25,691 nucleotides of DNA from an uncultured archaeon (GTDB lineage: Archaea; Asgardarchaeota; Heimdallarchaeia; Heimdallarchaeales; Heimdallarchaeaceae). Positions 5,599-16,794 of this stretch are shown here, in pieces (within the stretch, counting starts at the first letter, position 1; the number at the start of each line of letters is the position of its first letter). The stretch lies in NCBI GenBank assembly GCA_964534625.1, contig CAZHRF010000011.1, positions 49,474 to 75,164 of the forward strand, in the 5' to 3' direction. The translations under genes were made by a program, and so were the position numbers. The notes beneath the pieces were generated by a model. That model saw only the letters and a program-made list of their open reading frames with translations. It ran no database searches and was not told the DNA's origin.

Positions 5599-7050
5599 AT
5601 GAATAAAGTGATAAGTGAAGAAGCATTTGATTTAACGTCTGCCTATGAAAAATTTCTGCAATTTGAAGATAAGTTTGATTTATTTGAAAAAAAAATTAAT
5701 GGAGTATATTTCTGGGAACGAATAAGATTTAACGCGGGTAGATTAGTCTTATATCCTCAACTTTTTCAATTAAAGGAAACAGAAAAATCTTCTCTTTTTT
5801 CAAAATTTAAAGCAAAGAGCAAAAAGATCTTAAAATATCTAAAATCCATACTTTATGTCCATAGAAATCCTGTTTTTTCTAAAGTACATGATGTATTATT
5901 CTTAAGTCACCCAAGGAGAAAAAAGAAAGAGGATGGTAAATGGTGGGATATCTACACTGACCATTATCTGCCTTTAGAAGATTATTCTAGTCTGTCTATA
6001 GAAACACATTTCAGTAATACCTTTCTAACACCAGCAAAAACTAAAAATTTGAAGTATTTCACTTTCTATAATACACTCATAAACATTAAAAGACTATGGA
6101 AAAAAACAGAGATAAATTTCTCTGAAGAAGAGATTAATCTTCTACAAAATATGAGTAAAAAGTATTATGAGTTATTTGATGTTGACATTAATTTTGTAAA
6201 ATTAGTGCGATTAATATTGATTAGGCGTGAAAGAATATTACCTAAGTATATCAAATTCTTAAAGAAAATTAATCCAAAAGTGGTTTTAGTAGTAGTAAGC
6301 TATTCACATTCGAATTTTATTGAAGCTTGTAAAATATTGGACATTCCCACAGTTGAACTGCAACACGGGATTATTTCAAGATACCATCTAGGGTATTCAT
6401 TTGAAGGTGAAAAAGCGAAGAAAGAAACGTTTCCTGATTACTTGTTTACATTTGGTAAATACTGGAATGAATGTGTAGAATATCCTATATCTAAAGAGAA
6501 TATTGTAGCTATTGGTTTTCCGGAATTTGAAGAACAAAAAGAAAAATACAAACACCTTTCTAAAAAGAAACAAATTCTTTTCATATCCCAACCAATTGAG
6601 GATAATAACAAATTATCACGAATAGCTTTAAAATTGAGTAAAAGTAAAAATATCGAATATAAGATCATCTTTAAACTCCATCCTTCAGAGGATGATGTGT
6701 GGAAAGAGTGGTATCCGTGGTTAAATAATAGTCCGGTAGAAATTGTTGATCGAAGTGGAGACGATTTGTATAAACTCTTTGCGACTTCAGAATTTATTGT
6801 TGGGATGCATTCTACAGCTATCTATGAAGGTTTAGGATTTGGAGTGAAAACTTTCCTTTTAGATTGTAAGGTTACTCCTTATATCACTGATTTAATAGAT
6901 ACTAAGGCAGTAAAAATGATCTCTTCTGCAGATGATATAATTAACAATATAGGAACAATGGAAAGCCAGAAAATAGAAAAAGAATATTTCTTTAAAAGAA
7001 ATTCGAAAAAAAATATGCTAAGAGAATTAAAGAAAGTTATTGAAGGATAA
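5599..7050 (+). CDS. GT-B protein, putative nonulosonate (sialyl-like) transferase / capsule biosynthesis protein
   Basis: ELQHG, FPDYLFTFG, ILFISQP, FKLHPSE and HSTAIYEG motifs; the HP and ST motifs resemble bacterial sialyltransferase/TagF-like folds. It lies in a neuA/neuB locus. Confidence 0.65.
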   Translation: MNKVISEEAFDLTSAYEKFLQFEDKFDLFEKKINGVYFWERIRFNAGRLVLYPQLFQLKETEKSSLFSKFKAKSKKILKYLKSILYVHRNPVFSKVHDVLFLSHPRRKKKEDGKWWDIYTDHYLPLEDYSSLSIETHFSNTFLTPAKTKNLKYFTFYNTLINIKRLWKKTEINFSEEEINLLQNMSKKYYELFDVDINFVKLVRLILIRRERILPKYIKFLKKINPKVVLVVVSYSHSNFIEACKILDIPTVELQHGIISRYHLGYSFEGEKAKKETFPDYLFTFGKYWNECVEYPISKENIVAIGFPEFEEQKEKYKHLSKKKQILFISQPIEDNNKLSRIALKLSKSKNIEYKIIFKLHPSEDDVWKEWYPWLNNSPVEIVDRSGDDLYKLFATSEFIVGMHSTAIYEGLGFGVKTFLLDCKVTPYITDLIDTKAVKMISSADDIINNIGTMESQKIEKEYFFKRNSKKNMLRELKKVIEG

Positions 7051-7141: not shown

Positions 7142-8746
7142 ATGCCTGAAAAAGAAAGTACCTCTTTATTAGATTTAGGAAGAAGTTCGAAATTTGCTAT
7201 TGTGTTCTTTCTTTCCTTTGTTTTAGCAAAGTTATTAGGCATAGCATTTAGTAAAATTTTTACCAATACTTTGACAGAAAATGAGATGGGGACTTATTCC
7301 ATTATAACTTCTGCCATCATGTTAGTTATAGCATTTTCATCTTTTGGTTTTACTGGATCTCTAAACAGATATATTATTAAATATAAAACATCGAGACAAA
7401 TAAATAAGATAAAAGATTTTGTCACAACTGGTGTTTTACTATATATTTTAGCCGAGGTAGTTGTTGTATGCTGTTTATATGTGGTATATTTTATTACGCG
7501 AAAAAAACCTTGGTTTCTTCAAGTATCAAATTATGTAATAACTTTACTTTTAGTAGCATTGATTGTTTTATCTCAAGTATTTAGTGTAGTTGTCTATGTT
7601 AGTGCAATTTCCGTGCAAAATGGTAAATATTATTCAATAGTAGTAATAATGCGCGTATTACTTCAAATACCCTTTGGGATACTTTTTGTTATATTTTTTG
7701 ATCTAGGTCTCTTCGGTTTAATCCTCGGATTAGCAACTTCAGAAATAAGTGTGGCGTTGTATAGTATATATATACTTATTAGAGATATTGGCATAGGGAG
7801 GTTTTCACTTGTTGAGCTTAAGAAGATCTCAACATATTCTCTCCCTTCTTATTATGTAGGAAATTTATGGAAAGGATTTGATTTATTAATCTTTTTCTTA
7901 GTTGAATTCTTCTATCCAGTTGATAGTTCCGAGATCGTTGCTTTGTACCGATATGGAGCATTGGTTGTAGCAAATCTCATTCTTATTGCAGGTAATGTGT
8001 TTAGTTTAGTCTATAAACCTGTGGTCTTTAGACTTTTTGAGCAGAAGAGATTTGAAAGAATGCAACGCGTAACTAAAAAAATCTTAAAATTGTTCTTAGT
8101 AACAATTATCCCCATATCAATTGGACTTTATGCATATTCACCAATATTGATTGTTATATTTACAAATGCCTTTTACAGGCAAAGTATCTTTGTTATACCT
8201 ATTATTTTAGGAACTATAATCATGCAATATTTACAAGGAATAATTGGCTATGGACATTCCTTATATCTTAAGCAATATTGGAATGCTATTGCTGCTACAA
8301 TTGCATTCATATGTGGAACTCTAGCTGGCTATTTCATCATTCCAATAAATGGATTAGTTGGATTAGTATTGGCATTGTTTGTCATAAGATTTGTATATTC
8401 TTTCGGATTGATTATAGTCTCACAATTTTACCTCAAGCTAAAATATGATGTTAAAAGCTTATTATTGATACTAGGATCCACAATAATCTCAATAGGTATA
8501 GGCATTATACTGAATAAATTAGTGTTTAGTTACATTGCAATTTACAGTATTACGATTTCTTTTACTATTAGTATACTTATCTTTTTAGTCTTAATTTTAG
8601 TGACGAAACAGATAACCAAAGATGACTTAAAATTTTTCAGAAAGATGTTTCAGAGTTACATAGATAAAATAAAAAGAAAAGATAAGAAAAAAACCAAACT
8701 AGAAAATGATGAGGAAACTAAACTTAAAGATATTCAAGAAGATTAA
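7142..8746 (+). CDS. Oligosaccharide flippase (Wzx/MOP superfamily)
   Basis: Many hydrophobic segments, with the N-terminal FTNTLTENEMGTYS...GFTGSLNRY pattern typical of polysaccharide exporters. Its stop overlaps that of the convergent gene (TTAA, 8743-8746). Confidence 0.85.
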   Translation: MPEKESTSLLDLGRSSKFAIVFFLSFVLAKLLGIAFSKIFTNTLTENEMGTYSIITSAIMLVIAFSSFGFTGSLNRYIIKYKTSRQINKIKDFVTTGVLLYILAEVVVVCCLYVVYFITRKKPWFLQVSNYVITLLLVALIVLSQVFSVVVYVSAISVQNGKYYSIVVIMRVLLQIPFGILFVIFFDLGLFGLILGLATSEISVALYSIYILIRDIGIGRFSLVELKKISTYSLPSYYVGNLWKGFDLLIFFLVEFFYPVDSSEIVALYRYGALVVANLILIAGNVFSLVYKPVVFRLFEQKRFERMQRVTKKILKLFLVTIIPISIGLYAYSPILIVIFTNAFYRQSIFVIPIILGTIIMQYLQGIIGYGHSLYLKQYWNAIAATIAFICGTLAGYFIIPINGLVGLVLALFVIRFVYSFGLIIVSQFYLKLKYDVKSLLLILGSTIISIGIGIILNKLVFSYIAIYSITISFTISILIFLVLILVTKQITKDDLKFFRKMFQSYIDKIKRKDKKKTKLENDEETKLKDIQED

Positions 8747-9564
8747 TCCCAAATTTCAGTTTCTAAACCTGTGAGTTCTTTTAATTTTTGATTAGGCTCT
8801 TTAAAAAACTCCTTAAGCATTTTTCGTGTATGCCTCGACAATTCTGGATATCCTGGTTTTTTTCCTTTGTAACAAAGAGAACTTAACACTCTAAATATGA
8901 AAGAATCAATTCCGAAAGTTTCCCCGATTTTCTTTAATAAGCGTGGACGTCGAGGTATGATTGTCTTATGCCTTACTTCTTCTATATATTGATAATCATC
9001 TGATTTGGGAATTTCTAAGAAGGAAAATATTTGTTCTAATTCTTTTAGGGGGTTTTTGATAAATTTTTCAAACAATAAATAGTGCATTTGTTCATGACTA
9101 AAATAATTCAGATAATTTTTTATTTGTTTGTAATAAATACCGCGTTGTAAATAGCCTTTGAAGACATTTTCTTTTATTCTTGTTTCTTCTTGTTCTACTG
9201 ATTGTTCAAACGATAATTTTTCATTTCCACGCTTTACCGAATGCCAATAGTTCGAATACGCCCTGTTAATTGGATTTCTGAATATCCAAATTAGTTTTAC
9301 TTCTGGGTTGTAGTCATAGATCCTCTGTGGCACTTTTTCTAAATAACAGTAAGTCGGGGTTTTTTCTCCTATTAAGTTATCCTCATTATATTCACTGAAT
9401 ATGTTTTCATACCACTCATAGCCTTTGTTAAAATTAGATTCTAAATCAAAAAAATGCACTTCCTCGAGTGGCATGCTAATTGAGGGATGGTTATTCATAT
9501 GAAAAGCCAGACTGGATGTGCCAGCTTTCATTGCACCTACAATAATAACATCGGTTTTTTTCAT
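8743..9564 (-). CDS. PAPS-dependent sulfotransferase, heparan sulfate 3-O-/N-sulfotransferase-like
   Basis: IIVGAMKAGTSSL (5'-PSB), EEVHFFD, GYEWY, GEKTPTY, FRNPINRAYSNY (3'-PB) and a C-terminal LKEFFKEPNQKLKELTG. Confidence 0.9.
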   Translation of the reverse strand: MKKTDVIIVGAMKAGTSSLAFHMNNHPSISMPLEEVHFFDLESNFNKGYEWYENIFSEYNEDNLIGEKTPTYCYLEKVPQRIYDYNPEVKLIWIFRNPINRAYSNYWHSVKRGNEKLSFEQSVEQEETRIKENVFKGYLQRGIYYKQIKNYLNYFSHEQMHYLLFEKFIKNPLKELEQIFSFLEIPKSDDYQYIEEVRHKTIIPRRPRLLKKIGETFGIDSFIFRVLSSLCYKGKKPGYPELSRHTRKMLKEFFKEPNQKLKELTGLETEIWD

Positions 9565-9668
9565 CCTTTACCTCTCCATTTTTTGGACCTGCTAAATTGG
9601 ATTGAAACTATATTAGTTGAGTTCTATTAGAAGATAGGAACTTATTTAAAATAGTTTTGAACCTTGTC

Positions 9669-10199
9669 TTAATGGAATTTTTTCTCACTCTTTAATTTAT
9701 AATAATGTTCTCTGTCTCTGTATTTGAATACTTTGGCAGGATGACCTCCAACTATTGTACAGGGAGGTACATCTTTAACCACAACACTACCAGCTTGAAC
9801 AATAGCTCCCTCTCCCACTGTAACCCCACTTAGAATTATTACACGTGCACCAATCCATACATTATCTTCGATAATTATGGGGTTACGTATATATGTTTGG
9901 TCATAAGGAATTTTTGTTCCTTTATCATAGTTGTGATTTCGTGTGAGGAGTAAAATATCAGGTCCTGAATGAAAATTATTTCCTATAGTAACTGGACCAT
10001 CTCCTCGTATAGTCAAACCATTAAAATTTACGTTGTTCTTAAGAATGGTATTAGGGTTTACTTTAGATTTAAAATTTACAGTAAGATCATTACCATAAGA
10101 TTTTGCCTGCTTTTTTACTAAAGCTGTATAATATTTACGTTTAATGGCAATTATGAGGGATTGAAAAATCCCAATAATATCTACCATCTTGAACATCAC
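9669..10199 (-). CDS. Left-handed beta-helix O-acyltransferase
   Basis: Hexapeptide repeats [49 protein letters not shown]. Confidence 0.9.
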
Positions 10200-10318
10200 A
10201 AGTTAATGGGCTATAAGAATTATAAAAGCTTTTTTCTATAAGATAGAGTATTTACGTACTTTAAACCACTTTAATTCAAATTTGGTAAAATATGAAAATG
10301 GATATAAGATGTACATCC

Positions 10319-11365
10319 TTATTCCATTAAATCTTCCCACTTTAAAATGTCATCCTCTTCTTTGTCAGCAAAGATTTTTTTTCCTACAATCAAATCGTAG
10401 TGAATAGGACTGATACCAGTAGCCGGTCTCTTTGTTGTAAGTTTCTCTTCAGTAATAACTTCACCTTTTTTCATCGATTCAGCTAAGACGATACTTCTTC
10501 GGGCATAGTTTCTTGCAGGTAATTCTGCTTCAACTGGTCTTTTAACTTCCTCTCCTAACACGTCCTGTACTATACGAAGATTGTTAGTAAGTTTAGATAA
10601 ATCGTTTGGATCCATTGCATGATAGTGGTCGTTTCCAGGTAATGTCTTATCTAATGTATAATGTTTTTCAATAATAGTAGCACCTAACATCGAAGCAATT
10701 ACCAATATCATCATATTTTCATCAGGTAAGGTATGATCTGAATAACCGATTAAATATTCAGGGAAAATCTCTTGAAGATGTCTAATCATTCGGAGATTGG
10801 CATCGCTATTTTTTGTTGGATAACTTAATACGCAATGTAATAAAACTATCTGATTATTCCCTTGTTCTTTTATTGTTTCCACTGCATTGTATATTTCTGC
10901 TATGGTAGAGGCACCAGTTGATAAGAAAATTGGTTTATTCTTCTTCGCAATATGTCGTAAAAATGGTATGTTAGTTATATCTGAAGAAGAGATCTTGAAA
11001 ACTGGCATAATTTCATCTAAGAAGTCTGCACTTTCATTATCAAATGGGGTGGACATAAATATAATGCCCTTTTTTTCTGCTTCTTTAGCTAGTTCTCTGT
11101 ACTCCTTCTCCCCAAATTTATCAAGTTTTTTGAAAAAATCCCGTTGCGTCATATTTGTATCCCAATACGCTGGAGATTCTTTTGCAGCTATTTTTTCCGC
11201 TTTATATGTTTGGAATTTAATTGCATCAGCTCCAGTCTTGGCAGCCTCTCTTATCATTTTTTTAGCTGTGTCCATGTCATTTTCATGGTTAACTCCTGCT
11301 TCAGCAATAATAAATGGGGTGCTCTTTTCATCAATGATTCTATCATTAATCTGTATTTTTTTCAT
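10319..11365 (-). CDS. neuB: NeuB-family nonulosonic acid synthase with C-terminal SAF domain
   Basis: IIAEAGVNH, ADAIKFQ, STPFD, LSTGAS, LLHCVLSYP, GYSDHT, EKHYTLD, and ARRSIV...KRPATGISP. Confidence 0.92.
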   Translation of the reverse strand: MKKIQINDRIIDEKSTPFIIAEAGVNHENDMDTAKKMIREAAKTGADAIKFQTYKAEKIAAKESPAYWDTNMTQRDFFKKLDKFGEKEYRELAKEAEKKGIIFMSTPFDNESADFLDEIMPVFKISSSDITNIPFLRHIAKKNKPIFLSTGASTIAEIYNAVETIKEQGNNQIVLLHCVLSYPTKNSDANLRMIRHLQEIFPEYLIGYSDHTLPDENMMILVIASMLGATIIEKHYTLDKTLPGNDHYHAMDPNDLSKLTNNLRIVQDVLGEEVKRPVEAELPARNYARRSIVLAESMKKGEVITEEKLTTKRPATGISPIHYDLIVGKKIFADKEEDDILKWEDLME

Positions 11366-11366
11366 C

Positions 11367-13073
11367 TTATTCTACCTCTATTTGTACGTTCAATTTGGTG
11401 GAAGGATATTTTTCATGATACTTTTCGAATATTTTGTTTATTATTCTTTTTATGCCATATTTTAAATCATAACGAGTTAATATTCTATTCATTTCCTTCC
11501 TTAGATTAGTATTAGTACTCAGTTTAGTTATAGTTTTCTTTAATTTTTTTTTGGTTTTCTCATCTGCTAATCCTAAATATTCTATACCCTTTGAATCTTT
11601 TGAAAAGGTATGTTTTGTTTCTCTCTCATTTTGAGCAATAACTATTGTCGGAACACCAATAGATGCTACTTCAAACACCGTTCTACCGTTGGATGTAATA
11701 GCTATATCAGCATTATACATAAATTTAGACATGAATTTGATATCTTGAAAAACCTCTATATTATAACCTTCAGATTGTAATTTAGAAACATATTCATTTA
11801 GTGCATCTTTATATCTATATCCCAAGCCTAATACTATAGTAATTGTTATATCTTTTTTTTCTAAACCTTGGATGGCTTTAAGTGCTTCAAAAGTTAGATT
11901 ATTTTGGTCAGTTCCACCAAATGTAATCAAGATATTTTCAATATTTTCCTTGATTTTTTTGGTGGGGATTAACCTAAATTCCTCTCGTAGACAAATATAC
12001 TGGTGACCACTGTAGAAGTTTTCTTGATCAAAATTGGGATATTCATAAATGGCATTGAAAACAATATCTGCTTCTTTTGCTCCCATTCCAAGATCCTCAA
12101 ATGAAACAACTAATGCACCATGTTGTTTTAGTTTGGATATATATTGTAATTCAGTATCAAGAATATCGACCATAATAATATCGGGCTTTTCGTTTTCCAC
12201 AATATCGAAAAAAGATTTTTCTTCTGGGATGGTAACTAAGTTGTAATTATAAGACTTAACTTTATTAACTCCCAATTTAGATTTTTCGTTCATAACAAAA
12301 GTTATATCGTGCATAACAAGTTCATTTGCTATAGTTATCATTCTATAAACGTGCCCCATACCTATTTTATGATCGCCATCAACTCTCAAAAGTATTTTCT
12401 TTCTGTTGAGTATTTGTTCAGTTAGGAACCAATCTTTTTGAGTATCAATATCAATAGCTTCCTCTTCAGGGAGTTCAAAAACTCCAATAGGTTCTGAAAT
12501 ACGAGAATGACTTGTCAAGTTTTCTGTTTTTGTAATCAGGAATCCACCAGTTTCAAAAAAAACAGCATCAAGTTGTTGTCTATTCAATCTTTTTGGATAA
12601 AAAGGATGCAATTCTCCTTCTTTTTTGATCCAGAATAAATGTTTGATAGGTTCTACTGATAAAACTGTATGATAATGTTCCCTATAGAACTTTTCAATAG
12701 CGCTATCAATGGAGGTACTTCGTAATAATGGGCTAGTCGGTTGAAGAGTTATAACACAATCATATCTCACACTTGTTTGTCCCGAATATTCAATATATGC
12801 GTGATAAATAACTGGGTCTAGAGTTGTAGCATCTTCAGCTAATTTTTTGGGGCGATCAACTATATATTTAATACCAAACATTCTGCTAATATTTGCAATT
12901 TCTTCGTCATCTGTTGTAACAATTACGTCATCAATATAATCACTTGAAAGTGCAGTATTGATGCAGTATGCAATTAAAGGTTTATTCTGTAAAAAGCGAA
13001 CATTTTTTCTAGGTATACCTTTTGATCCACCTCTAGCGGGAATTATAGCTAAGATTTTTTTGTCGTTGTACAC
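11367..13073 (-). CDS. Fusion of CMP-nonulosonate synthetase (NeuA/PseF-like) and PseG/SpsG-like GT-B hydrolase
   Basis: N-half has IIPARGGSKGIPRKN, LQPTSPL and DIDT. C-half has LRVDGDHKIGMGHVYR, LITFGGTD and GRTVFEVASIGVPTIVIAQNERE. GTG start. Confidence 0.88.
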   Translation of the reverse strand: MYNDKKILAIIPARGGSKGIPRKNVRFLQNKPLIAYCINTALSSDYIDDVIVTTDDEEIANISRMFGIKYIVDRPKKLAEDATTLDPVIYHAYIEYSGQTSVRYDCVITLQPTSPLLRSTSIDSAIEKFYREHYHTVLSVEPIKHLFWIKKEGELHPFYPKRLNRQQLDAVFFETGGFLITKTENLTSHSRISEPIGVFELPEEEAIDIDTQKDWFLTEQILNRKKILLRVDGDHKIGMGHVYRMITIANELVMHDITFVMNEKSKLGVNKVKSYNYNLVTIPEEKSFFDIVENEKPDIIMVDILDTELQYISKLKQHGALVVSFEDLGMGAKEADIVFNAIYEYPNFDQENFYSGHQYICLREEFRLIPTKKIKENIENILITFGGTDQNNLTFEALKAIQGLEKKDITITIVLGLGYRYKDALNEYVSKLQSEGYNIEVFQDIKFMSKFMYNADIAITSNGRTVFEVASIGVPTIVIAQNERETKHTFSKDSKGIEYLGLADEKTKKKLKKTITKLSTNTNLRKEMNRILTRYDLKYGIKRIINKIFEKYHEKYPSTKLNVQIEVE

Positions 13074-13127: not shown

Positions 13128-13337
13128 TCATAGGTAGCCTAGTTTTTTGAGTCTTTCTTCTACTTCTTTTTCTTCCTCTTCCAAAATTTCTTTCGTTTCT
13201 GCATTTTCTATTTTTTCTTTAAGCATATCTTCAACATAAGAATCTATTGTTTCATATTGATCTTCTTTCTTTATCAATTCTTTTAATTTATTATAAACTT
13301 CTTCAGATATCTCAATCTGGTATCTTTTTTCACTCAT
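13128..13337 (-). CDS. Small CopG/ribbon-helix-helix-like protein with acidic C-terminal tail ending EERLKKLGYL
   Basis: YQIEISEEVYNKLK...YETIDSYVEDMLKE strand-helix-helix pattern. GTGAT RBS; tightly packed in the operon. Confidence 0.75.
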   Translation of the reverse strand: MSEKRYQIEISEEVYNKLKELIKKEDQYETIDSYVEDMLKEKIENAETKEILEEEEKEVEERLKKLGYL

Positions 13338-13346
13338 TTTATCACT

Positions 13347-13931
13347 TCAATTTTTACTTTCTTCATTTCTTTGTCTATAAAGTCTTTTATCGACAACATT
13401 AGCAATTTTGGGATATTCTAAATCAAGTTCAAGAAACGTTCTAAGTTTGTCAATATAATCTTCTGGTTTACTTAAAATATTGTTATAAGAAACATACAAA
13501 ACATCAAAATTTTCATTCATAGCCAACCATCTTTTAATCTTCTCTAAGTGTTTTTCGAAATGTATTTGCATTTCATTATCACTAGTAGTGTTCTCTTCAT
13601 CTCGTCGGATTAGCATCTTCTTTTGAGACATTAAGATTTCTTTTAAATCTCTCTCCATAAATAATATTTTATACTGATAGTTGTTATCAGGTAGATATTT
13701 CAGAAGATATGAGATAATTTTGACAACTTTATTATCTTTATTGGCATCTTCCATCCACCCATAATCTTTTTCTGGTAATTTCTTAACTCTTTCAAATTCA
13801 AAATACCCCTTTGGATTGTCCATATCTGCCTTTCGTATTTCATCTGTTAGTGTATCTAGACCAGCAGTTTCTAACACACTCATCATCATTGAGGTACCAG
13901 ACCGAGGTAATCCAGAAACTATTATAATCAC
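13347..13931 (-). CDS. Short PAPS-dependent sulfotransferase
   Basis: IIVSGLPRSGTSMMM, NPKGYFE, FMERDLKEILMSQ and VSYNNIL. GTG start with GGAGG RBS. Confidence 0.85.
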   Translation of the reverse strand: MIIIVSGLPRSGTSMMMSVLETAGLDTLTDEIRKADMDNPKGYFEFERVKKLPEKDYGWMEDANKDNKVVKIISYLLKYLPDNNYQYKILFMERDLKEILMSQKKMLIRRDEENTTSDNEMQIHFEKHLEKIKRWLAMNENFDVLYVSYNNILSKPEDYIDKLRTFLELDLEYPKIANVVDKRLYRQRNEESKN

Positions 13932-13942
13932 TTATATTCCTC

Positions 13943-15286
13943 CTATTTAGATAATTTTTGTTTCTTTTTATGTATATCTATTAGCTTCTCTAATTCTTGG
14001 GCTAATTCTGCTTTTTTGTCAATTTGATTATTTTGTTCCATAGGATCTTCTGTAAGGTTAAATAATTGTTTAGTTCCGTCATCATATTTAATATACTTCC
14101 ACCTTTTTCCCCTTATCGTAACGATTTGATTCCCAGTACCACTCATCGATACTTTTCCCCTGTCTTCCATAGTCTCACTAATGATATAAGGACGTTCTCT
14201 GTAACCATCTCCGAAAATGAACTGACCTTTAAATAACTCAGGTATTTTTATTCCTGATAATCCAAGAATTGTTGGAGCTAAATCTACTAAAGATATTAGA
14301 TCAGTATGTCTTTGAAGGTCGATATCATTGTCACTTATTAGTAAGGGAACATGAATTAATTCATCATATAACTTGGCTTTATGACTGAAATCGCCGTGTT
14401 CTTTGAATTCTTCACCGTGGTCGGCAGTTATAATAATAGTTGACGCTCCAATTTTTTCTTGCCATGTTTTGATTAGTTTGTTAATATGTTTGTCAGTAAA
14501 ATGGATCTCTGCATCGTAAAGATCGATTATGCGCTGTTTTAATTCTTCAGAAACGTTTTCGGGATGTCGTATCTTTTTATCGATTTTAAATGACTTTTTC
14601 AAGGAAACTTCTTCATCTCTCCATTTTTTTAAAGAATCAGAGTAAATAAAAGGGTGATGAGGATCCATGTAATGAACCCATAAGAAAATAGGTTGATCAG
14701 TATGGTGTGTTTCTAACCATTCGAGAACTTTCTCAGTCGTCACATCAGCTCTAGCGTAAGGTATCTCATCTTCAACAAATATCTGATTATATACGCTTTT
14801 AAAAGTCAAAATAATTTTCCGGAGTATTTTACGTAGAAAGGGTACTTTCTTAATATTCCTTTTAAGAAAAGAATGCTTGGGCGGTTTAACTTTACTTTTA
14901 TCCTGTGTATTTAGTTTAGATTTGCCTTTTCTAGCACCAAGATCGAAGAAAAAATCAAACCCCCTTTCATAACCATAATGATCTGACACGTAAACATTAG
15001 AATGAAAGCCAGCAGTAGTGTATCCATGTTCTTTGAAAATAGACGTAAGACTTGTTCTTCTGTTATGCTTTAAGGAAGGAATTGAACTATAATCTAGAGG
15101 ATGTGTGGATGTAAATATGGCTGGAAACGAATAGGGTGTACTTGGTCCTGTTGAAAAAGCATTATCAAAAATCTTGAAGTTAGTAGATAGCTTATCTAAA
15201 AGGGGTGTCGTCTTTCGGTTATAACCATAACAACTCATATGATCTGGTCTCAAACAATCAACAGTAATTAAGAGAATACTTTTCAT
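13943..15286 (-). CDS. Cytoplasmic sulfatase-like hydrolase/transferase (alkaline phosphatase superfamily) with Thr-type active site
   Basis: ITVDCLRPDH, PSTPYSFPAIFTS, HYMDPHHP, YDAEI, TADHGEEF...H and LYDELIHVPL. No signal peptide and no [C/S]xPxR motif. Confidence 0.85.
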   Translation of the reverse strand: MKSILLITVDCLRPDHMSCYGYNRKTTPLLDKLSTNFKIFDNAFSTGPSTPYSFPAIFTSTHPLDYSSIPSLKHNRRTSLTSIFKEHGYTTAGFHSNVYVSDHYGYERGFDFFFDLGARKGKSKLNTQDKSKVKPPKHSFLKRNIKKVPFLRKILRKIILTFKSVYNQIFVEDEIPYARADVTTEKVLEWLETHHTDQPIFLWVHYMDPHHPFIYSDSLKKWRDEEVSLKKSFKIDKKIRHPENVSEELKQRIIDLYDAEIHFTDKHINKLIKTWQEKIGASTIIITADHGEEFKEHGDFSHKAKLYDELIHVPLLISDNDIDLQRHTDLISLVDLAPTILGLSGIKIPELFKGQFIFGDGYRERPYIISETMEDRGKVSMSGTGNQIVTIRGKRWKYIKYDDGTKQLFNLTEDPMEQNNQIDKKAELAQELEKLIDIHKKKQKLSK

Positions 15287-15313: not shown

Positions 15314-16794
15314 TTAATATTTTTTCTGTTTTCGTTCAGTTTTATATTTATTGTTGTGTATTATTTTTTGTAGTTCTTTTTTCAAATTTGATACGGGATT
15401 ACTTTTAAAGAAATATTCCTTATCTATTTTTTTCCTTTAAACTCTGGTATAAGTCGCTTTATTTCATCAGCAGACGAAACAACTTTAACTTTTCCAGTTT
15501 CAATTAAATTATACATATAGGGTGTAACAATACAATCTAAAAGAAATATTTTAAGACAAAATCCCAACCCCTCATATAGTGCTGTTGAATGCATTGCAAC
15601 CAGATATTCCGATGTGGCAAAAAGAGTATACAAATCATCCCTCTCGCTATCTACTATGTTTATATCTGCATCTTTTAGCCACAGATACCATTCTTCCCAT
15701 ACATCATCTTCAACAGGATGAGTTTGAAAATAATGCCATAATTGAATTCCTCGTCTTTACTGAGTTTCAAAGCGATTTTGGACAACTGAATATTGTCCTC
15801 GATAGGTTGGGATATGAAAAGAATTTGTTTCTTTTTAGAAAGGTGTTTGTATTTTTCCTTTTCTCTATCAAATTCGGGAAAACCGATTGCAACCAAATTT
15901 TCGTTTGGGATAGGATAGTTCACAATTATTCCAATATTTGCCAAATGTAAACATGTAATCTGGATAGGTCTGAATTTTTGTATTTGGACTTTCGAAAGAA
16001 TAGCCTACGTGATATCGTGAGATAATACCATGTTGCAGTTCAATAGTAGGGATATTAAGTGTATTGCATGCTTCAATAAAGTTAAAGTGTGAATAACTGA
16101 CGACAATGAGAACAGCTTTCGGTTGTATTTTATTTTGAAGTTTTAAATATATAGGTAGTATTCTCTCCCTGCGAACAAGAATCGCTTTAACCAATGTTTC
16201 AAGCATAATCCGAATTTGAAATAATGAATAGAATTGTTCAGTCAAATCTTTTAAGAAGTCTTGTTCTTGGTGGGTAAGGTTAATTTTAGGTTTTTTCCAA
16301 ATCCGTTGTAAATTTAGTATAGTATCGTAAAAAGTCAAATATTTAAGATTTTTAGTTTTAGGTGGGGTCAAAAATTTATTCCAAAAATGATTTTCAATTG
16401 ATAAAGAAGAATAATTGTCAAAGGGAAGATAATAATCAGAGTATATATCCCACCATTTACCATCTCCCATCAATTTTCTCCGACGGTGACTTAATATTAA
16501 AATATTTGACTTTTTGGCAAATAATGGGTTTCTGTGAATATATAAAATAGATTTGCCATAGATAGAAATTTTTGATGTTTGGATCGGATTTTGGAAAGAA
16601 AAGACCTTTTTTTCATTTTTTCTTGTATGAAATAACTGAGGTATAGAACTTGACGACCAACCTTAAAGCGAATTCGCCCCCCCCCCGAAATGAACATTAT
16701 TGATTTTCTTATCGAATAAATCATTGTTTGTTTCAAATTTGATGGATTTTTTATAGTTCTCCTCTAAATCCGATTCTTGCATATACTTTGTCAT
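15314..16794 (-). pseudogene. Frameshifted paralog of the 5599-7050 putative nonulosonate transferase
   Basis: Reconstructed from ATG 16794 to TAA 15314, it aligns end to end with 5599-7050 (DGKWWDIY, ELQHGIISRYH, EKYKHLSKKKQILFISQPIEDN, MHSTALYEGLGF, KEYFFK). It has five frameshifts: G10 at 16677-16686, ~16578, ~15922, ~15719 and ~15427-15433. The ORF-track entries at 15424, 15675, 15868 and 16497 are its fragments. Confidence 0.9.

Follow-up and report, generated by a model that had tools for sequence, protein, structure and literature searches.

A conserved LGY peptide shared by sulfatase-fold enzymes and a small ribbon-helix-helix-like protein in an Asgard glycan operon

Most members of one branch of sulfatase-fold enzymes, in Archaea as well as in Bacteria, end in the same conserved peptide with an invariant tyrosine. 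This peptide also occurs as a separate small protein, which is encoded either at the head of PAPS operons or, in the locus described here, beside a tail-less enzyme within a glycan operon. We found no mention of the conserved LGY peptide in the literature. The locus lies in a window of 25,691 nucleotides (the whole stretch of DNA that was analysed) from an uncultured archaeon of the Heimdallarchaeaceae. Since the 69-residue protein of the window bears the peptide that most relatives of the neighbouring enzyme carry in cis, it probably lends this peptide to the enzyme or regulates through it. Our best reading, held tentatively as a whole and with the sulfated-glycan operon included, is that the 69-residue protein provides the LGY tail in trans, as a docking peptide. 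With its 12 residues, the tail offers a cheap and concrete handle on the mechanism or regulation of sulfatase-fold enzymes.

Three adjacent genes in a glycan operon

The sulfatase-fold enzyme, a sulfotransferase and the 69-residue protein are encoded by three neighbouring genes on the minus strand, separated by gaps of 11 bp and then 9 bp. The features of the locus, in window coordinates, are the following.

13943..15286, minus strand: tail-less cytoplasmic Thr-type sulfatase-fold (alkaline-phosphatase superfamily) enzyme, 447 aa (PF00884, SGSH_C)
15137..15139, minus strand: codon of Thr50, the predicted nucleophile, which occupies the formylglycine Cys/Ser position of sulfatases
13347..13931, minus strand: short PAPS-type sulfotransferase, 194 aa (PF00685, PF13469)
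13128..13337, minus strand: RHH-LGY protein, 69 aa, stop codon included (family searches, AF2, Foldseek)
13203..13337, minus strand: N-domain of the 69-aa protein, residues 1-45, ribbon-helix-helix-like (strand, helix, helix), net charge -5 (AF2 and Foldseek fold; weak RHH_1/VapB/RHH_5 family matches)
13167..13202, minus strand: acidic linker of the 69-aa protein, residues 46-57, helical in the model and continuous with helix 2
13131..13166, minus strand: LGY tail of the 69-aa protein, residues 58-69 (EVEERLKKLGYL), a basic amphipathic helix with invariant Gly-Tyr and a hydrophobic residue
13073..11367, minus strand: PseF/PseG-like fusion, 54 bp past the 69-aa gene
11365..10319, minus strand: NeuB-like gene
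8743..13073, minus strand: downstream context, comprising the PseF/PseG-like fusion, the NeuB-like synthase, a hexapeptide acetyltransferase and a second sulfotransferase (273 aa)

The initial annotation had described the trio as co-oriented, spaced by 9-11 bp and located upstream of nonulosonic-acid genes, and all of its coordinates and features hold. An SD-like AGTGAT lies in the 9-bp gap, 3 nt ahead of the ATG of the 69-residue gene. No terminator-like site was found between the trio and the downstream genes (8743..13073), and these probably belong to the same transcription unit. A scan for bacterial-type promoters and terminators, in which bacterial models were applied to an archaeal host, gave counts at the shuffle level. 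The operon contains NulO synthesis genes, a flippase, glycosyltransferases and two PAPS sulfotransferases. The locus points to a sulfated, sialic-acid-like glycan on the cell surface of this Asgard archaeon.

The 447-residue enzyme matches the Pfam families PF00884 (1.8e-47) and SGSH_C (4.8e-11). It opens directly on the first strand of the fold (MKSILLITVDC) and therefore has no signal peptide or transmembrane segment; its C-terminus, HKKKQKLSK, is without LGY. The metal-binding Asp and His residues of the sulfatase fold (D10, D289 and H290) are conserved, together with T50 and H205, across 66 homologues. The nucleophile region, STGPSTPYSFPAIFTS, reads S-T-P-Y-S and lacks the C/S-x-P-x-R of type I (formylglycine) S1 sulfatases, the family consensus being ..CSTRPSF.. 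or ..GPSTPYSF.., neither of which has that pattern. Thr50 aligns with Cys84 of iduronate-2-sulfatase and is at least 90% conserved in one of the alignments (A2), inside the family motif ..ST..SFP.I.TS. These results bear out the earlier description of the enzyme as having no signal peptide, no formylglycine motif and no LGY tail. The N-terminal part of the protein also matches EptA/MCR phosphoethanolamine transferases. Phosphoryl transferases (EptA, LtaS, NPP) typically use a Thr nucleophile, so the transferred group could be a phospho-substituent and not sulfate.

Among named homologues, those nearest to the enzyme are haloarchaeal 'sulfatases' of ~451 residues with 35-39% identity, and it is through these that the 447-residue protein becomes a candidate Agl31-like glycan sulfotransferase. 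That sulfatase-fold proteins add sulfate to archaeal N-glycans was shown only in 2025, for Agl30 (VNG1056C) and Agl31 (VNG1057C) of Halobacterium salinarum (Zaretsky et al. 2025, PMC11980604). Like the window's enzyme, both belong to the alkaline-phosphatase superfamily, are annotated as sulfatases and are encoded in a glycan biosynthesis cluster, and Agl31 is also soluble and cytoplasmic. The idea that such a 'sulfatase' adds rather than removes sulfate agrees with the published genetics of Agl30 and Agl31, for which the same study mentions no sulfate donor, tail or partner protein (PMC11980604). The haloarchaeal homologues carry the LGY tail, whereas the window's enzyme is without it and has a separate tail-bearing neighbour instead.

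The 194-residue sulfotransferase is above the gathering score for both PF00685 (1.4e-9) and PF13469 (3.5e-9), and it has the two PAPS motifs of the family, the 5'-PSB PRSGTS (residues 9-14) and the 3'-PB R-x7-S (RDLKEILMS). The catalytic base of PAPS sulfotransferases is a His in cytosolic SULTs and a Glu in TPST. Here, the canonical His aligns with a Ser, as judged from the only PDB alignment, a weak one with SULT1C3 (E 0.003). Homologues of this protein are present in 13 of the 301 Asgard genomes; some are encoded within sat-DHH-x-cysC operons, and seven adjoin an LGY/RHH gene.

The small protein family and the distribution of its tail

The 69-residue protein ends in EEEEKEVEERLKKLGYL, its C-terminal helix being EERLKKLGYL; the LGY end noted at the outset, and its absence from the enzyme, both stand. 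Its family was detected by an exhaustive homologue search (a word-indexed search gave only the query) and has 46 representatives at E<1e-3; 121 of 301 Asgard genomes contain a match, and the residues L63, G67 and Y68 are invariant. The small open reading frame is therefore more than a chance one. Pfam has no model for the family, and matches to RHH_1, VapB and RHH_5 among its members are weak, RHH_1 matching just 2 of 43 members (6.6e-4). The common architecture consists of a ribbon-helix-helix-like N-domain, an acidic linker (mean charge -4.5 to -4.9 across the family) and the LGY helix with its invariant Gly-Tyr. The AF2 monomer of the 69-residue protein (pLDDT 85) has a coil at residues 1-11 and helices at 12-24 and 31-66, and its best Foldseek matches are RHH proteins only (among them NikR, ParD, CopG and Arc), at TM 0.5-0.6 and E 0.3-2.

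A check on the invariance of the tyrosine, proposed by the initial annotation, came out in its favour: in the 46 representatives, in 67 Asgard and 19 bacterial stand-alone proteins and in ~160 enzyme tails, that is, in every true tail examined, Tyr is invariant and never replaced by Phe. An RLxxLGY tail was absent elsewhere in the window's own genome. With the 69-residue protein as its sole carrier, the tail is thus no common proteome tag there. The HbYX proteasome-docking motif was also considered and rejected, as Gly precedes Tyr and the distance to the C-terminus varies.

On the side of the enzymes, 83 of the 120 closest homologues of the 447-residue protein end in ..MDEEVKERLRDLGYQE, and its bacterial relatives mostly end in ..RLRALGY(L/I/V). 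The window's enzyme and its nearest Asgard relatives have no tail, which was absent from all 30 Asgard homologues inspected. That the tail might be a missing structural part of the enzyme was rejected, since the window's enzyme matches SGSH_C over its whole length and the tail is attached outside the fold by way of a linker. When a tailed Halorubrum enzyme was modelled as a monomer with AF2, the tail helix reached a pLDDT of only ~65 and is therefore not confidently docked in cis. A second branch of the alkaline-phosphatase fold, that of NPP-like proteins, behaves like the sulfatase-fold branch as to the tail. NPP-like enzymes of ~460 residues in LGY-headed operons are tail-less; those of 539-573 residues have the tail in cis and no stand-alone gene nearby. 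The distribution that the initial annotation had described, namely on sulfatase-fold proteins, on phosphodiesterase-fold proteins and on small CopG-like proteins by PAPS genes, is the one we found.

The stand-alone gene and the cis tail are complementary in a set of 80 genome loci. Of the 29 tail-less enzymes encoded there, 19 have a stand-alone RHH-LGY gene no more than 8 kb away, against 1 of the 51 tailed ones (Fisher OR 95, p = 3e-10, for loci that are phylogenetically non-independent), a relationship driven by one acidobacterial clade. Tail-less enzymes adjoin stand-alone LGY genes in Acidobacteriota, in KSB1 and in the window, and the acidobacterial small gene is internal to EPS operons, just as the window's is within its own operon. 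However, a replicate with 80 metagenome loci showed no association, the stand-alone gene being within 5 kb of a single tail-less enzyme out of 20 and a single tailed one out of 57; the tail-less enzymes of these loci end in a different, basic helix. The co-occurrence that had been suggested as a check is consequently present in the genome loci but not in the metagenome loci. Just 6 of ~44 Asgard enzyme homologues lie within 3.5 kb of an LGY gene. In genomes G000 and G163, of the same archaeal family, the enzyme, the sulfotransferase and the RHH-LGY protein are all present. G130 and G283, also of that family, have the sulfotransferase and a small RHH protein; searches of these two for an enzyme homologue (E<=1e-30) and, in all frames, for the tail found neither.

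Sulfate-activation operons and a possible purely regulatory role

In Asgard genomes, RHH-LGY genes mostly occupy the first position of the known copG-sat-NPP-cysC PAPS operon. The LGY gene is co-oriented with sat and 0-62 bp upstream of it in 41 of 67 family members, and the neighbours in 61 LGY loci (60 Asgard loci and the window) include NPP in 49, sat in 46 and cysC in 41. A copG-sat-DHH pApase-NPP-cysC(-tauE) cluster has been described in Pyrococcus yayanosii and Thermococcus onnurineus (Jin et al. 2021, PMC8268124, citing Lee et al. 2009). The same small family comes first in it, and its neighbours there are, as in 41-49 of the 61 loci above, ATP sulfurylase, NPP phosphodiesterase, APS kinase, DHH phosphatase and TauE. 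The copG of that cluster has been treated only as a putative transcription factor, and its tail went unremarked (PMC8268124). It was therefore fair to suspect, as the initial annotation did, a system hidden behind the labels 'CopG regulator' and 'sulfatase'. The first of these bears an enzyme-type tail, and the second is probably a transferase instead.

The window's copy differs from this arrangement. It does not lie directly upstream of ATP sulfurylase but inside a glycan operon, where it follows the sulfatase-fold enzyme and the sulfotransferase and precedes the NulO genes, away from sat-cysC. The fused sat-cysC gene of this genome is on contig C45 and has no LGY gene with it. TAATTA palindromes are ~5-fold enriched upstream of Asgard LGY genes (1.52 vs 0.28 per 100 nt); no TAATTA array was found near the window's operon or near the genome's sat-cysC gene.

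It is conceivable, though on balance we think it rather unlikely, that the 69-residue protein is purely a CopG/Mnt-type RHH repressor of sulfate-activation and sulfation genes. It would then sit in the operon because it regulates that operon. Its C-terminal helix would serve oligomerisation (by tail-tail contacts, as in P22 Mnt) or effector sensing, and the likeness to enzyme tails would reflect a shared oligomerisation helix. The RHH-like fold is in line with this view, and so are the first position of the family in the copG-sat-NPP-cysC operon (41 of 67), with TAATTA-enriched upstream gaps of ~80-430 bp, and the slightly basic N-domains of operon-head members (mean +1.2). A Pyrococcus member has indeed been called a putative copG regulator (PMC8268124). 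Moreover, in the model, helix 2 runs unbroken into the tail like a coiled-coil arm, and G130 and G283 have kept a tail-less RHH domain beside the sulfotransferase. Nonetheless, the window's copy is operon-internal, 9 bp behind the preceding gene and with no operator-like array nearby, its N-domain charge of -5 sits poorly with DNA binding, and the acidobacterial copies are likewise internal to EPS operons. Pure oligomerisation also leaves unexplained why the stand-alone gene accompanies tail-less enzymes and why the tail is lost together with the enzyme.

Proposed docking in trans and other possible roles for the tail

If the tail is instead a docking peptide supplied in trans, the three genes would be part of one operon building a sulfated, nonulosonate-containing surface glycan. 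The 447-residue protein would be no sulfate remover but a Thr-nucleophile member of the sulfatase-fold branch that supplies the Halobacterium N-glycan sulfotransferases Agl30 and Agl31, and the 194-residue protein would be an ordinary PAPS-dependent sulfotransferase serving another position or acceptor. The enzyme would have lost its cis tail. The 69-residue protein, a putative dimer-forming ribbon-helix-helix module with the portable LGY tail as its C-terminal helix, would provide the tail in trans, and we infer that the tail docks on the sulfatase-fold enzyme and may regulate it, bridge it or report its occupancy. Where the family takes its usual place as first gene of a copG-sat-NPP-cysC operon, its N-domain probably doubles as a DNA-binding autoregulator.

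Docking in trans is the better supported of the two readings offered by the initial annotation because of the cis tails of homologues (83 of 120), the LGY genes neighbouring tail-less enzymes, the loss of the tail in enzyme-less relatives and a weak pass in complex modelling, even though the complementarity was not replicated in metagenomes. The multimer prediction, likewise among the checks proposed, gave the enzyme and the 69-residue protein an ipSAE of 0.48 (runs 0.47, 0.54 and 0.48) compared with 0.00 for the best control. This amounts to weak support: 58 of 80 solved complexes attain the ipSAE mark and so do 2 of 110 mismatched pairs, and at values of 0.60 or below there are just 7 of the 80 solved complexes, yet both passing mismatches. 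The runs agree in at least 97% of contacts, with a partner pLDDT of at least 81; the enzyme alignment used for the model includes tailed homologues, which may bias the placement.

The other reading in the initial annotation was a sulfo-tyrosine relay, in which the PAPS-dependent 194-residue enzyme sulfates the invariant Tyr and the sulfatase-fold enzyme moves the sulfuryl group onto Thr50 and then to a sugar; in tailed enzymes, the shuttle would be part of the same protein. We rather disfavour this scheme and regard it as very unlikely. Its proposed acceptor is indeed invariant, and the chemistry is plausible, since aryl sulfates are natural substrates of the sulfatase fold and donors for PAPS-independent arylsulfotransferases. 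An ASST-type gene (PF05935) adjoins the equivalent trio in G163 and lies in the same way at three other LGY loci, and the unusually small 194-residue sulfotransferase would suit a macromolecular acceptor. In addition, no donor for Agl30 and Agl31 is named in the published work (PMC11980604). However, the first step of the scheme fits poorly with the distribution of its proposed charging enzyme, which does not regularly co-occur: of 80 loci with tailed or tail-dependent enzymes, just 3 have a PF00685-type gene within 8 kb, none of them of the 194-residue type, and the majority of LGY genes are in sat-NPP-cysC operons without any sulfotransferase. The acidobacterial operons with an LGY gene and a tail-less enzyme hold no PAPS gene, and G130 and G283 have retained the sulfotransferase despite the loss of the tail. 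Furthermore, a sulfo-Thr alkyl ester is a poor sulfuryl donor, and the residues beside the Tyr are basic or hydrophobic, unlike those of known tyrosine-sulfation sites. A neighbour conserved in the acidobacterial loci, c3 (390 aa), matched nothing in Pfam, NCBIfam or the PDB and lacks a P-loop; it is therefore not a hidden sulfotransferase. Also very unlikely is the general proposition that the LGY Tyr is a covalent sulfate shuttle and that archaeal and bacterial sulfatase-fold glycan sulfotransferases take sulfate from sulfotyrosine, not from PAPS directly. The sulfotyrosine would be on the enzyme's own tail or, here, on the RHH-LGY protein charged by a minimal PAPS sulfotransferase. If true, the shuttle would be a protein-borne aryl-sulfate donor system and would answer how Agl30/Agl31-type enzymes obtain their sulfate.

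Alternatively, the tail might be a general sulfate-pathway tag read by a third component or by the membrane, either as a metabolon scaffold or as a peripheral anchor taking soluble enzymes to lipid-linked glycans; the 69-residue protein would then compete for, or report on, the receptor. Such a tag seems improbable to us, all the more so as VNG1057C, tail-bearing or not, fractionated as soluble (PMC11980604). In its favour, proteins of unrelated fold share the motif (sulfatase-fold, NPP-fold and RHH), its short, basic and amphipathic helix comes after a flexible acidic linker, the cis tail is not confidently docked in the Halorubrum model, and Asgard homologues substitute another basic amphipathic C-terminal helix. 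A similar pattern, ...LxxMGYLP, ends nearly all APS kinases, but this likeness may be an intrinsic helix of the APS-kinase fold. No recurrent candidate receptor gene was seen across the archaeal and bacterial loci, and strict Gly-Tyr invariance would be unusual for a generic membrane anchor.

Returning to docking in trans, there is a parallel in the CysE-CysK cysteine synthase complex and in CymR-CysK, where a C-terminal peptide docks on a pathway enzyme and the enzyme-regulator complex couples metabolism to transcription. The likeness proposed here is that the short C-terminal peptide of a sulfur-pathway protein would dock on a pathway enzyme. The folds are unrelated, however, and the key residue of CysE is the terminal Ile carboxylate, whereas the LGY motif would work even if internal (P0002; bacterial tails with extensions). 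RHH type II antitoxins (ParD, CcdA, RelB) and P22 Mnt combine an N-terminal RHH dimer with a partner-binding or oligomerising C-terminal extension, the architecture proposed here for the 69-residue protein, and they share with the canonical members of its family the position as first gene of the operon; ParD/PrpA, CopA, CopG and Arc are among the top Foldseek matches of the 69-residue model. In contrast to these proteins, the family has no toxin partner, its LGY tail is shared with enzymes across Bacteria and Archaea, and the window's N-domain is strongly acidic. DltX, a membrane peptide carrying D-alanyl esters, resembles the 69-residue protein as a small protein with an invariant Tyr near the C-terminus that is encoded with cell-surface polymer-modifying enzymes. 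It differs in its membrane location and ester cargo, the LGY tail being also fused to soluble enzymes.

The three-gene run and its sulfatase-fold enzyme

The window's contig (C11) belongs to a 3.37-Mb MAG with a completeness of 90%, which the names of homologues assign to the Heimdall group of Asgard archaea. Three consecutive minus-strand ORFs, separated by 11 and 9 bp, are found here, and the minus-strand run to which they belong ends with a further sulfotransferase gene:

15286..13943, minus strand: sulfatase-fold enzyme, 447 aa, Pfam Sulfatase (1.8e-47) and SGSH_C
13931..13347, minus strand: sulfotransferase, 194 aa, Sulfotransfer_1 and Sulfotransfer_3, both above the gathering score
13337..13128, minus strand: small protein, 69 aa, without a family above threshold (best VapB_antitox, 0.009)
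8743-9564, minus strand: second sulfotransferase, 273 aa, PF00685, last gene of the run

The initial annotation had described the trio in the same way, and every detail is borne out. The small protein ends in EEEEKEVEERLKKLGYL, and both PAPS-binding motifs, PRSGTS and R-x7-S, are present in the 194-aa sulfotransferase. Starting 54 bp past the small gene, with no terminator-like site in that interval, are a PseF/PseG-like fusion, a NeuB-like synthase, a hexapeptide acetyltransferase and the second sulfotransferase, so that the candidate sulfating enzymes of the locus number up to three. Glycosyltransferases and a flippase lie upstream, on the opposite strand. Just upstream of the enzyme gene there is also a broken paralog (15868-16794, minus strand; fragments of 201, 79 and 69 aa) of a 483-aa protein with no Pfam family (5599-7050, plus strand), which falls into the same cluster as the fragments; a 53-bp identical patch and a G10 tract noted previously relate to this gene and its broken copy.

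In an alignment of 66 enzyme homologues, D10, T50, D289, H290 and H205 are (near-)invariant. Thr50 pairs with the formylglycine Cys of iduronate-2-sulfatase, and the surrounding family motif, ..ST..SFP.I.TS, does not fit C/S-x-P-x-R, which rules out a formylglycine sulfatase; judged from the alignment, the enzyme belongs to the alkaline-phosphatase superfamily and has Thr as its nucleophile. Residues 1-70 match also EptA/MCR-type phosphoethanolamine transferases, and since the N-terminus begins at the first strand of the fold, there is no signal peptide. The family numbers 3091 proteins (E<=1e-10), its named members being mostly haloarchaeal 'sulfatases' of ~451 aa. In H. salinarum, deletion and heterologous expression revealed that two sulfatase-fold proteins, membrane-bound Agl30 and soluble Agl31, sulfate N-glycan sugars, with neither donor nor mechanism named (PMC11980604, Zaretsky et al. 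2025). The window's enzyme is a candidate Agl31-like glycan sulfotransferase. Only genomic context and the Halobacterium precedent favour sulfate as the group that it would transfer; phosphoryl transferases are the enzymes in which a Thr nucleophile is typically seen.

The small protein and PAPS operons

An exhaustive search yielded 46 cluster representatives of the small-protein family, almost all of 64-74 aa and matching end to end. Their alignment consists of a strand-helix-helix N-domain, an acidic linker and a C-terminal helix, the LGY tail, of the form (I/V)KERL(K/R)xLGY(L/I/M)(D/E), with L63, G67 and Y68 invariant. In the AF2 model (pLDDT 85) helix 2 extends through the linker up to L66, and the top Foldseek matches are exclusively ribbon-helix-helix (RHH) proteins, with weak E-values. 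Family member P0002 has tandem copies with LGYL internal, and certain bacterial enzyme tails run on 10-25 residues beyond the LGY motif, so a free C-terminus is not needed.

A profile search with the small protein matched 121 of 301 Asgard genomes. Clustering of neighbour genes from ~8 kb on each side of 60 matches (61 loci with the window) gave a usual order of LGY gene, ATP sulfurylase (sat), NPP-type phosphodiesterase (~460 aa) and APS kinase (cysC), with NPP present in 49 of the loci, sat in 46, cysC in 41 and TauE in 15; sat is directly downstream of 41 of 67 small genes, at a gap of 0-62 bp. Variants have a DHH phosphatase inserted, or NPP replaced by the window's short sulfotransferase family (L047, L058). 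This layout is the 'sulfate assimilation cluster' of Thermococcales, for which the small gene has been described as a putative copG regulator and removal of PPi has been proposed as the role of the NPP protein (PMC8268124). TAATTA palindromes are ~5-fold enriched upstream of the Asgard small genes (1.52 per 100 nt, vs 0.28 in the remaining intergenic upstream sequence of these loci; related genomes are not independent), and the N-domains of operon-head members are slightly basic, which makes DNA binding plausible for these members. The window's small gene lies inside a glycan operon, not at an operon head, its product has an N-domain net charge of -5, and no TAATTA array is found near it. Outside the window, the same genome (G000) encodes a sat-cysC fusion:

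G000 contig C45:7900-9654, minus strand: fused sat-cysC, encoding a single 584-aa protein, with genes for two TauE-like exporters after it

No small LGY gene or NPP-type gene lies beside this fusion, and an NPP homologue was not found in the genome.

The LGY tail on enzymes

Among the 120 closest enzyme homologues, 83 terminate in ..MDEEVKERLRDLGYQE; a short, basic end closes the chain soon after a conserved His, both in the window's enzyme and in the Asgard proteins nearest to it. When each species was represented by one genome, a scan gave 80 enzyme loci, mostly bacterial, and the majority of these enzymes end in ..RLRALGY(L/I/V)x. Some Asgard NPP-type proteins (539-573 aa) bear the LGY tail as well, acidic linker included. 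The Tyr is invariant across all true LGY tails, two apparent Phe-for-Tyr tails having been dismissed as regex artefacts. At least three kinds of C-terminus occur in the Thr-type sulfatase-fold family (loci L106-L135, L216-L295):

Kind 1: acidic linker and RLxxLGY; haloarchaea and most Bacteria
Kind 2: basic helix of the EKxKIxxxIxKLK type; Asgard and other archaea
Kind 3: RLRDLRLEW-like ends; Acidobacteriota

Of the 41 Asgard APS kinases, nearly all terminate in ...VEESKxxILxxLxxMGYLP (L032-L091, e.g. L055:10925-11458, plus strand), sharing hydrophobic spacing and Gly-Tyr with the LGY tail; this ending may belong to the kinase fold as an intrinsic helix, or else have given rise to the tail or mimic it.

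Across the 80 genome loci, 19 of 29 tail-less enzymes have a stand-alone RHH-LGY gene no more than 8 kb away, vs 1 of 51 enzymes with the tail (Fisher OR 95, p = 3e-10). Of the ten tail-less loci that lack the small gene, several are contig ends or have tails with long extensions. The loci with the stand-alone gene are 17 from Acidobacteriota (essentially one clade), plus KSB1 and Dadabacteria. The acidobacterial EPS operon reads Wzx, LGY (internal), a methyltransferase or FemAB-like gene, an unknown 390-aa gene, the tail-less enzyme, three GT1 genes and Wzy, with no PAPS gene within 8 kb. The 390-aa protein has no known family and carries the motif RPLVLLQSDDWGRVG (L144-L195, e.g. L165:6817-7989, plus strand); its gene invariably comes immediately before that of the tail-less enzyme, the stop codon of the one overlapping the start of the other. 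In a metagenome replicate (80 loci seeded with the window's enzyme) the association is absent, the stand-alone gene being found at 1 of 20 tail-less vs 1 of 57 tailed enzymes. The tail-less metagenome enzymes have a different, basic amphipathic C-terminal helix, as do 28 of 30 Asgard homologues examined.

The most telling comparison comes from the archaeon's own family. Enzyme, sulfotransferase and RHH-LGY protein occur together in G000 and in another Asgard genome, G163, whereas in G130 and G283 the gene after the sulfotransferase encodes a small protein that, though clearly homologous, stops short of the tail:

L094:1316-1486, minus strand: tail-less small RHH protein after short sulfotransferase, in a genome of the archaeon's family
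L095:2033-2227, plus strand: tail-less small RHH protein after short sulfotransferase, in a genome of the archaeon's family

In G130 and G283 there is neither an LGY in any frame nor an enzyme homologue at E<=1e-30. Thus, the RHH domain tracks the sulfotransferase and the tail the sulfatase-fold enzyme, in a contrast of four genomes that is probably one evolutionary event. In L094, a frame-shifted tail remnant (KIKEVKERQFLF) may come after the stop.

Possible roles of the LGY helix

The predicted complex of enzyme and small protein has an ipSAE of 0.48 (runs 0.47, 0.54 and 0.48; best of three controls 0.00), and the runs share at least 97% of contacts, with a partner pLDDT of at least 81. Among solved complexes, 58 of 80 reach the ipSAE pass mark, as do 2 of 110 mismatched pairs, yet values of <=0.60 include just 7 of the 80 solved complexes and both passing mismatches. 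The enzyme alignment included tailed homologues, which may bias the placement, and the model lends the complex weak support. When a tailed enzyme from Halorubrum is modelled as an AF2 monomer, its tail helix (438-446) comes after a coil and has a pLDDT of only ~65; as modelled, it is an appendage outside the fold, without confident docking in cis.

The copG-sat-NPP-cysC cluster, RHH proteins with partner-binding tails and sulfatase-fold sulfotransferases are already published. In the literature searched, there is no mention of an LGY tail common to these proteins, of how widely it occurs on this enzyme branch in both Bacteria and Archaea, or of its split form within glycan operons.

The best-supported account takes the LGY helix for a portable element of the sulfation machinery, a peptide that would bind alkaline-phosphatase-fold enzymes and that, in the window's operon, a small RHH dimer would provide in trans. 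Of the two readings in the initial annotation, this docking peptide is the better supported; we favour it tentatively, at somewhat under even chances, as the signal from comparative genomics, though strong, is lineage-bound and the complex model is weak. The other reading, a sulfotyrosine relay through the LGY Tyr, has in its favour an invariant Tyr, attractive chemistry and the lack of a named sulfate donor for Agl30/Agl31. The distribution of the charging sulfotransferase makes it very improbable: this protein does not co-travel with the tail, is absent from most LGY operons and persists where the tail was lost.

Rather unlikely, yet to be taken seriously, is a purely regulatory small protein with the LGY helix as an oligomerisation arm, which fits the operon-head members better than the window's copy. 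That the tail is a pathway tag recognised by a third partner or the membrane seems improbable, even with a similar ...LxxMGYLP helix at the end of nearly all APS kinases.

Genes of PF05935 (PAPS-independent ASST) adjoin LGY genes in four loci (L037, L063, L079 and L091). The one in L037 (G163:C65, 254-3421, plus strand) is an ASST-type gene in the only other genome with the window's trio.
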